Assembly (NCBI RefSeq): GCF_003334405.1
Contig: NZ_QOWM01000001.1
Length of the DNA stretch: 64,000 nucleotides
Origin: Escherichia coli
Lineage (GTDB): Bacteria; Pseudomonadota; Gammaproteobacteria; Enterobacterales; Enterobacteriaceae
Direction: 5' to 3' (one strand)
The number at the start of each line of letters is the position of its first letter. The first letter of the stretch is position 1. The notes under the pieces were generated by a model. It saw only the letters and a program-made list of their open reading frames with translations. It was not told the DNA's origin and searched no databases. The position numbers and the translations under genes were made by a program. Shown one piece after another: positions 25,290 through 25,550 of the stretch.

Positions 25290-25550
25290 ATAGGCCGCAC
25301 GGTTGTTTGGTGGCGTCAAAATTGCCGAGGCGTTCCCTGAAGGCCGGGGCAGCCCACATGGATGTGGGCTGAGGGCGCGTTTTACAGGGATGTTACCTCG
25401 CGCCCGACCCGGTAGCCGTAAGGGATAAGCCGAGGGCACCGCGCAGCGGCGATTTTGTTCGCCAGAGCCCGGGGGTGCAGGGGGCGGCGGCGATTGGCCG
25501 CCCCCTGCGCGCTCCTTGCGCCAGTGATTATATGAAGCAATGCACATGAC
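25290..25550. other. GC-rich structured intergenic element of unknown identity (three strong hairpins)
   Basis: perfect hairpins cagcccacat-gg-atgtgggctg, gggcgcg..cgcgccc and cagggggcgg..ccgccccctg between convergent dusC and yohP; not a canonical REP. Confidence 0.4.

Follow-up and report, generated by a model that had tools for sequence, protein, structure and literature searches.

What is the GC-rich, highly structured stretch between dusC and yohP in this window, that is, in the whole 64-kb stretch of DNA that was analysed? An earlier note, made from the letters alone, had called it unexplained and had offered a different intergenic repeat family, a structured sRNA or a degenerate remnant as explanations. 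Judged by its sequence, the stretch is the known E. coli repeat TRIP1c, now named RRS-dusC. The label "unexplained" has to be dropped, since the element has already been named and studied experimentally in the literature; it was catalogued in 1999 and has been the subject of experiments since 2023, and as a discovery it opens nothing new. The correct label keeps the element from being reported as an orphan sRNA candidate. We hold it to be quite probable that TRIP1c/RRS-dusC acts as a DNA element, in which the fold of the G-rich strand would block the lagging-strand polymerase and leave a gap of single-stranded DNA (ssDNA). Relative to the portions of the TRIP1 and RRS papers drawn on here, the present analysis adds a covariation-backed fold of the G-rich strand with 11 helices, a link to the TwoAYGGAY motif and counts of the two orientations at dusC (63%/37%).

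The element downstream of dusC and its published counterpart

The gene dusC (+) ends at 25245 and is followed by yohP (25618-25701, -) and mdtQ, which starts at 25835. The whole repeat unit, the bounds of which were taken from paralogue alignments and match those of Li et al. 2024, covers 25289-25561 on the plus strand (about 273 bp) and starts 43-44 bp past the dusC stop codon. The place given before (25290-25550) was right, whereas the limits were slightly too narrow. GC content is 0.60-0.73 over 25300-25549 and 0.32-0.38 in both flanks, which bears out the description as a GC-rich island between AT-rich flanks.

The sole long ORF across the element (25287-25547, minus strand, 86 aa) is rich in Pro, Gly and Arg, and had been considered non-coding for that reason. 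A database search agrees with this view, as all 21 relatives found are "hypothetical proteins" of Escherichia, Shigella and Klebsiella whose reading frames lie in the same repeat, and among them no Pfam domain attributable to the repeat was found. The ORF was therefore rejected as a gene and is regarded as an artefact of composition. One of the relatives, P0019, comes from an assembly with homopolymer errors: in the E. coli assembly GCA_002230675.1 (L007:900-1450) the dusC copy carries several single-base deletions in homopolymer runs, which are probably sequencing errors in a GC-rich element that is hard to sequence and which made P0019 a spurious divergent "protein". A small ORF behind an SD-like AGGAG (25551-25555) was likewise rejected, because it comprises three codons here, because the downstream frame is not conserved across copies and because the AGGAG itself covaries within helix 11 of the fold described below. 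A consensus scan revealed neither a sigma-70 promoter nor an intrinsic terminator belonging to the element.

TRIP1 repeats were described by Rudd 1999 and by Li et al. 2024 (PMC10888264). The latter paper places TRIP1a at aqpZ-ybjE, a partial TRIP1b at putP-ycdN, TRIP1c, with 273 bp, 43 bp downstream of yohI (= dusC), TRIP1d at alx-sstT and TRIP1e at copA-ybaP. It reports a GC content of 62-65%, 0-5 copies and both directions, and predicts a "double-Y" RNA structure for TRIP1. TRIP1a and TRIP1c were renamed Replication Risk Sequences, RRS-lysO and RRS-dusC, by Pham et al. (2023, PMC10287960; 2024, PMC10592627), who describe them as 222-bp repeats about 650 kb either side of dif. According to the second of these papers, the RRS carry a G-quadruplex (G4) motif, GGGGGTGCAGGGGGCGGCGG, on the lagging-strand template.

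Three observations tie the window to the published element, namely the exact G4 motif, the identity to K-12 and a positive GC skew of the sense strand. The G4 motif has a single exact match in the 64-kb window (25471-25490, +), where 0 are expected by chance, and shares bases with the 5' arm of a hairpin of 12 bp. A 353-nt segment around the element is identical to K-12 NC_000913 (L001:3075-3427(-)) and obtains the same model score of 188.9 bits. On the sense strand the GC skew of the window flanks (63 kb) is +0.025 (z 4.5). The K-12 copy is located on the minus strand at 2.229 Mb, which we take to be in the left replichore from the presumed positions of oriC and dif, and this agrees with the skew. 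As positive skew corresponds to leading-strand composition, the sense (G4) strand serves as template for the lagging strand, in agreement with the publications. The locus is the published one too, 43 nt past the dusC stop and between dusC and yohP/mdtQ (yohG), and the paralogues at aqpZ-lysO and alx-sstT are the published TRIP1a/RRS-lysO and TRIP1d. The published TRIP1c/RRS-dusC sequence does not differ from 25289-25561; sequence, locus, length, GC content, G4 motif and the lagging-strand orientation of K-12 are all the same, and no difference was found in the element itself.

For the polymerase block, the formation of gaps, the conditional essentiality and the effects on supercoiling we rely on the literature. 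RecA and SSB peaks marking ssDNA were reported at both RRS and were gone on deletion (PMC10287960). Pol I, II and IV were blocked at the RRS G4, ectopic RRS copies led to new gaps, and the RecA/SSB peaks followed the element wherever it was moved (PMC10592627). The same paper reports that a double RRS deletion was obtained only with insH7-8 amplification, that at least one RRS copy is conditionally essential, that Psora-seq reveals genome-wide supercoiling changes, and that RecA and SSB peaks are absent in vivo from inverted RRS constructs. In single-molecule imaging, gaps were described for almost all encounters with the replisome (Kusi-Appauh et al. 2026, bioRxiv 10.64898/2026.06.16.732529).

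The mechanism that we consider for the window copy would start with the replisome unwinding the element, upon which the G-rich (window plus) strand would quickly fold into a G-quadruplex and/or a multi-hairpin structure. The folded strand, being the lagging-strand template, would block the lagging-strand polymerase, and the Okazaki fragment left unfinished would result in a transient ssDNA gap of up to about 2 kb, which would load SSB and RecA. The discoverers proposed that such a gap may act as a swivel, a topological relief valve in replication termination and segregation. This swivel function, like the shares that G4 and hairpin would have in the effect, is something we infer.

Conserved fold of the G-rich strand

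With RNA parameters, 25293-25562 folds with -143.8 kcal/mol (z -5.2) on the plus strand and with -131.4 kcal/mol (z -5.0) on the minus strand; with DNA parameters the z values are -6.0 and -5.2, respectively. All of the 200 dinucleotide shuffles used as control were beaten on both strands, so that the structure postulated from the letters was upheld by folding. The three hairpins of the earlier note, with stems of 10, 7 and 10 bp, are all present, but the third stem counts 12 bp. A fourth inverted repeat of 8 bp (25509-25516 / 25551-25558) had not been listed there.

In the RNAalifold consensus with its pair counts, a core domain at 25311-25464 (this and all following features on the plus strand) is closed by helix P1 (25311-25324 / 25450-25464). 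It continues through helix 2 (25325-25338 / 25421-25435) to helices 3/4 (25342-25348 / 25408-25417), which lead to two adjacent hairpins. Hairpin 1 (25350-25371) is a perfect inverted repeat with a stem of 9-10 bp (arms 25350-25359 / 25362-25371, 10 bp) and the loop motif CAUGGAUG (25357-25364). Hairpin 2 (25373-25405), an inverted repeat seen also in the consensus fold, consists of a perfect 7-bp outer stem (25373-25379 / 25399-25405) and an inner stem with the loop motif ACAGGGAUGU (25384-25393). A small hairpin, CCGC-GCA-GCGG (helix 8, 25439-25449), is located at the three-way junction. Beyond the core follow the GC-rich 12-bp hairpin GCAGGGGGCGGC / GCCGCCCCCUGC (helices 9/10, 25477-25508; perfect arms 25477-25488 / 25497-25508) and the terminal hairpin GCGCUCCU / AGGAGCGC (helix 11, 25509-25558), which has a variable 34-nt loop.

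The covariation analysis proposed in the earlier note was carried out on an alignment of 39 distinct copies from Escherichia, Klebsiella, Enterobacter, Kluyvera, Pseudescherichia and Pseudocitrobacter. The copies were gathered by a three-motif pattern scan with one genome per species; as the pattern required CATGGATG, CCCGACCCG and GGGATAAG, the invariance of these motifs in the 39-copy set is by construction, while neither the stems nor the loop 2 GGA are subject to this bias. The consensus contains 68 pairs in 11 helices, and at 24 of the pairs compensatory double changes were found across several genera. Paired cells amount to 98.5% vs 92.5% in column shuffles and cells changed on both sides to 176 vs 55, and none of 500 shuffles reached the observed values. 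With the partners slid by 1-3 columns just 36-45% were paired.

The compensatory changes are distributed over the whole fold. They affect 6 of the 12 pairs of P1, 4 of the 11 pairs of helix 2 and three pairs of hairpin 1 (e.g. CCCACA/UGUGGG to CGCGCA/UGCGCG). The inner pair of hairpin 2 is A-U in 21 and G-C in 18 copies, and in helix 8 a G-C to A-U compensatory change is seen in 7 copies. Helices 9/10 comprise 5 compensatory pairs, for example GGGGGAGGAGG / CCTCCTCCCCC in the allele of the AZ162 type, and helix 11 covaries from GCGCUCU/AGAGCGC in Enterobacter to CGUUCAC/GUGAACG in Pseudescherichia. Covariation in every major helix, including the long-range P1, could not easily be produced by local correction of quasi-palindromes.

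The wobble cells are distributed very unequally, with 159 G-U/U-G against 5 A-C/C-A, which indicates that the G-rich (window plus) strand is the strand selected to fold. This asymmetry fits RNA and ssDNA alike, with G-T wobble tolerated in both. Since compensatory changes occur on the C-rich arm opposite the G4 tracts, selection can be demonstrated for the 12-bp hairpin, but not specifically for the quadruplex. The G-tracts are kept in diverged copies (B-type, see below) too, and quadruplex and 12-bp hairpin may both be important. Thus it is a specific branched fold of the G-rich strand that is maintained in evolution, including a hairpin which competes with the quadruplex, and not mere G-richness. 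In loop 2 all 39 copies have GGA, though this triplet lies outside the search pattern. That the GGA loops are more conserved than a model of "any stable structure" predicts counts against reading TRIP1c/RRS-dusC purely as a DNA block.

Copies, distribution and orientation

Copy number, for which the earlier note had suggested BLASTN, was determined by a distant BLASTN search of 5,426 complete E. coli genomes. The element was found in every one of them, in 1-10 places (median 3), so that the guess of a different intergenic repeat family was correct, the family being TRIP1/RRS. According to junction counts about 5,416 of the 5,426 genomes carry the element at the dusC site. This presence in essentially all genomes, together with the conservation by compensatory changes, speaks against a degenerate remnant, as does the conditional essentiality of at least one copy reported in PMC10592627. 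The earlier note had named a simple multi-copy repeat as the outcome that would count against its proposal; by the number of genomic copies the element is such a repeat, but not in the sense of one that has no function.

K-12 contains full copies at dusC-yohP and aqpZ-lysO, both unannotated in NC_000913, and none at alx-sstT. At the latter place K-12 (L048:2560-2760) carries a BoxC/PIT-like repeat (CCCTCTCCC...GGGAGAGGG, GGGTGAGGG) where other strains have TRIP1d, i.e. different repeat families replace one another at this spot. In some strains an internally deleted version of the element is found.

The pattern scan gave 39 loci in Escherichia species, Pseudescherichia vulneris, Pseudocitrobacter, Kluyvera, Klebsiella pneumoniae and Enterobacter sp. 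ENT03. The last of these carries 7 copies that hardly differ from each other, and 5 were found in K. pneumoniae ATCC 13883. In one K. pneumoniae genome two A-type copies are arranged as tandem direct repeats about 320 nt apart (L006:2560-2719 and 3036-3196, -), embedded among Klebsiella REP-like sequences. TRIP1 copies similar to those of E. coli or Klebsiella were also seen on contigs labelled as a Desulfacinum MAG, a "Proteobacteria" MAG, a Sporobacter termitidis MAG and Bacillus sp. (L009, L013, L030 and L039), the Bacillus contig being 583 nt long; assembly contamination is the likely source of these copies.

A covariance model, R1, was built from the core domain; it scores the window copy with 188.9 bits and detects this single copy in the window. 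With the same model a second copy, of a diverged B-type, was detected in opposite orientation (head to head) to the A-type copy and 55-270 nt upstream of it in Kluyvera, Pseudocitrobacter, Enterobacter ENT03, Pseudescherichia, Escherichia sp. ESNIH1 and an Enterobacteriaceae MAG. In these genera such a partner, of which 12 were found, accompanies most A-type copies. The doublets are located at L014:1858-2338, L046:3745-4223, L031:1537-2112, L032:9304-9779, L019-L025, L012:6321-6821 and L018:7568-8067. The architecture with two hairpins, G-tracts and both 3' hairpins is kept in the B-type copies; in 2 of the 12, loop 2 has no GGA. Beside the searched copies of E. coli and Klebsiella no B-type partner was found.

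Orientation at dusC was counted with junction-spanning queries. Among the 5,426 complete genomes 3,414 (63%) show the orientation of the window and K-12, and 2,002 (37%) the inverted one; in strain AZ162 the element is flanked by the same genes and runs antisense to dusC. A comparison of window 25170-25340 with L004:2690-2860 reveals that the allele types differ also in the last dusC codons and in the remaining intergenic sequence. At aqpZ-lysO the orientation likewise differs, here between K-12 and O157. The flank GC skew of inverted dusC alleles is negative (L004 z -2.2, L034 z -3.5), and as 2,002 of the 5,426 genomes are inverted, the G4 strand should lie on the leading-strand template in more than one third of the strains. 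About 37% of the complete E. coli genomes carry the orientation that is gap-poor in vivo in laboratory constructs, and models needing lagging-strand placement must accommodate this. Across 42 copies from several genera the sign of the flank GC skew, a noisy proxy, is positive for 16 and negative for 26, which does not support a family-wide lagging-strand rule.

Judged by crude ORF calls, 29 of 37 copies have a convergent downstream gene, and in 24 of 36 the upstream gene is oriented like the element. Consistent co-orientation with the upstream gene, which the first three loci had suggested, was overturned by TRIP1a of K-12, the AZ162-type allele and the junction counts. The copies lie in gene 3' regions, and the pattern is not that of 5'-UTR elements.

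Relation to TwoAYGGAY and REP-type repeats

In an Rfam scan of the element no family reached its gathering score, so neither REP/BIME nor another curated family could be assigned at threshold. The REP-derived naRNA4 model matches elsewhere in the window (18003-18080, +, 88.3 bits, above the Rfam threshold) and not at 25289-25561, and REP consensus units are not visible in the 39-copy alignment either, in line with the earlier statement that the stretch is no REP sequence. The best Rfam match is TwoAYGGAY (RF01731), with 30.9 bits against a gathering score of 43 and an E value of 0.013, on the plus strand at 25303-25454; the copies of K-12 at aqpZ and of alx reach 30.6 and 29.9 bits, respectively. 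The alignment covers the model in full length, and the loops of hairpins 1 and 2 fall on its two AYGGAY loops. Loop 1 is AUGGAU and fits AYGGAY, while loop 2 is AGGGAU, with R for Y; in Kluyvera genomosp. 3 (L032) and the Enterobacteriaceae MAG (L031) both loops are AUGGAU. B-type relatives at L014 and L046, which R1 ties to the TRIP1 family with E values of 1e-10 to 3e-12, obtain 49.2 bits against the threshold of 43. TwoAYGGAY was described by Weinberg et al. 2010 (PMC2864571) as a motif with a long P1 stem around two hairpins, and the first entries of its seed alignment are at least five copies from Psychromonas ingrahamii. In the element such a stem is formed by the covarying helices 1-4, which enclose the two hairpins.

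These similarities make an RNA or CsrA role of the element possible, as far as sequence comparison goes. The sense strand would be transcribed, here at the 3' end of the dusC message, into a TwoAYGGAY-type RNA which binds a CsrA dimer, with its GGA-loop hairpins 28 nt apart, and which serves as a decoy or as a cis stability element; such a role could coexist with the one in DNA. The SELEX consensus of CsrA is reportedly RUACARGGAUGU, and both loop 2 (UUACAGGGAUGU) and loop 1 (ACAUGGAUGU) closely resemble it. TwoAYGGAY shares the Rfam clan CL00106 with CsrB and has been proposed as a CsrA binder (Gardner and Eldai, PMC4333381), and the fixation of the loop 2 GGA in all 39 copies while the stems covary would fit a protein that reads the loop. 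However, the window copy stays under the Rfam threshold with a loop 2 that is not AYGGAY, and the GGA is missing from two B-type copies. The strong preference of wobble pairs for one strand, though expected for an RNA, cannot separate RNA from folded ssDNA, in which G-T wobble is allowed. In the window the element points the same way as dusC and no strong terminator separates the two, but the transcriptional context is inconsistent: TRIP1a of K-12 is antisense to aqpZ and lysO and lies beyond the aqpZ terminator, in 37% of genomes the copy at dusC runs antisense to that gene, the downstream gene is mostly convergent, and neither a promoter nor a terminator consensus is associated with the element. 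In the rows covered from the supplementary tables of Potts et al. 2017, the CsrA CLIP-seq flags are "No" for dusC, ybjE, alx and sstT (aqpZ and yohP are absent from them) and thus give no support. Altogether we regard this RNA role as unlikely.

In the other alternative the element would be chiefly selfish, a non-autonomous mobile repeat (MITE- or REPIN-like) which spreads and is exchanged among intergenic 3' regions, the structure serving mobilisation and the effects on replication being incidental. Its variable number (1-10 places per E. coli genome in our search, 0-5 in Li et al., PMC10888264), the near-identical copies which point to recent bursts in Enterobacter as well as the five of K. 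pneumoniae, the occurrence of either orientation within one intergenic region, as at dusC-yohP and aqpZ-lysO, and the exchange with a BoxC-like repeat at alx-sstT are what such a repeat would leave behind. The head-to-head A/B doublets of several genera recall REP doublets, and the element resembles REP/BIME sequences in being GC-rich, palindromic, intergenic, multi-copy and located at gene 3' ends; BIME-2 is also tied to chromosome topology, via gyrase binding. In contrast, REP units are palindromes of 35-40 nt present in hundreds, whereas the unit in the window is about 270 nt long, branched and found in few copies per genome. Neither terminal inverted repeats nor target-site duplications nor an associated transposase were seen in the compared alleles, and the comparison of filled and empty sites at alx-sstT and aqpZ-lysO revealed replacement of whole segments between alleles and no clean insertion junction. 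The nearly complete occupation of the dusC site, the long-range helices with compensatory changes across genera, which argue for purifying selection on the fold, and the reported conditional essentiality of at least one copy (PMC10592627) make a mainly selfish repeat very improbable. The reading as a DNA element that blocks the lagging-strand polymerase is therefore preferred.

It is a separate question how TRIP1/RRS and TwoAYGGAY are related. Both have two adjacent hairpins with (A)YGGAY-type loops in a long P1, are multi-copy and are not bound to 5'-UTRs. Unlike the Rfam model, the element carries extra 3' hairpins and the G4 tract, and besides its score below threshold its GC content is far above that of the Psychromonas seeds; the resemblance may stem from common descent or from convergence. 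The likeness to CsrB/CsrC is limited to GGA in hairpin loops that resemble high-affinity CsrA sites. CsrB is reported to have about 22 CsrA sites, whereas the element has just two candidate sites, no sequence homology to CsrB and no promoter or terminator consensus of its own. That TRIP1/RRS is the enterobacterial branch of TwoAYGGAY, with either an RNA/CsrA layer or an RRS-like DNA function elsewhere, appears doubtful to us. If the former held, the GGA hairpins of the sense RNA would be read by CsrA or another loop-specific protein, and an element of replication topology would be linked to the Csr network. If the latter held, the "TwoAYGGAY RNAs" of Psychromonas, Clostridiales and gut metagenomes would be RRS-like DNA elements which program replication gaps beyond the enterobacteria. 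The two invariant GGA loops and the kinship to TwoAYGGAY suggest a sequence-specific reader and relatives outside the enterobacteria.

Some other features of the window were recorded as well. Two OrzO-P antitoxin RNA matches at 50245-50320 and 50855-50928 (-), with 99.9 and 88.8 bits against a threshold of 60, are a zor-orz type I toxin-antitoxin pair. Since such pairs are, to our knowledge, absent from K-12, this suggests that the window originates from a non-K-12 E. coli despite its K-12-identical TRIP1c. A Peptidase-S11 RNA motif matches at 29729-29809 (+) with 72.8 bits, above the Rfam threshold. The gene mdtQ (25835-27361, +), which is annotated as a pseudogene in K-12, is an uninterrupted ORF of 508 aa here.
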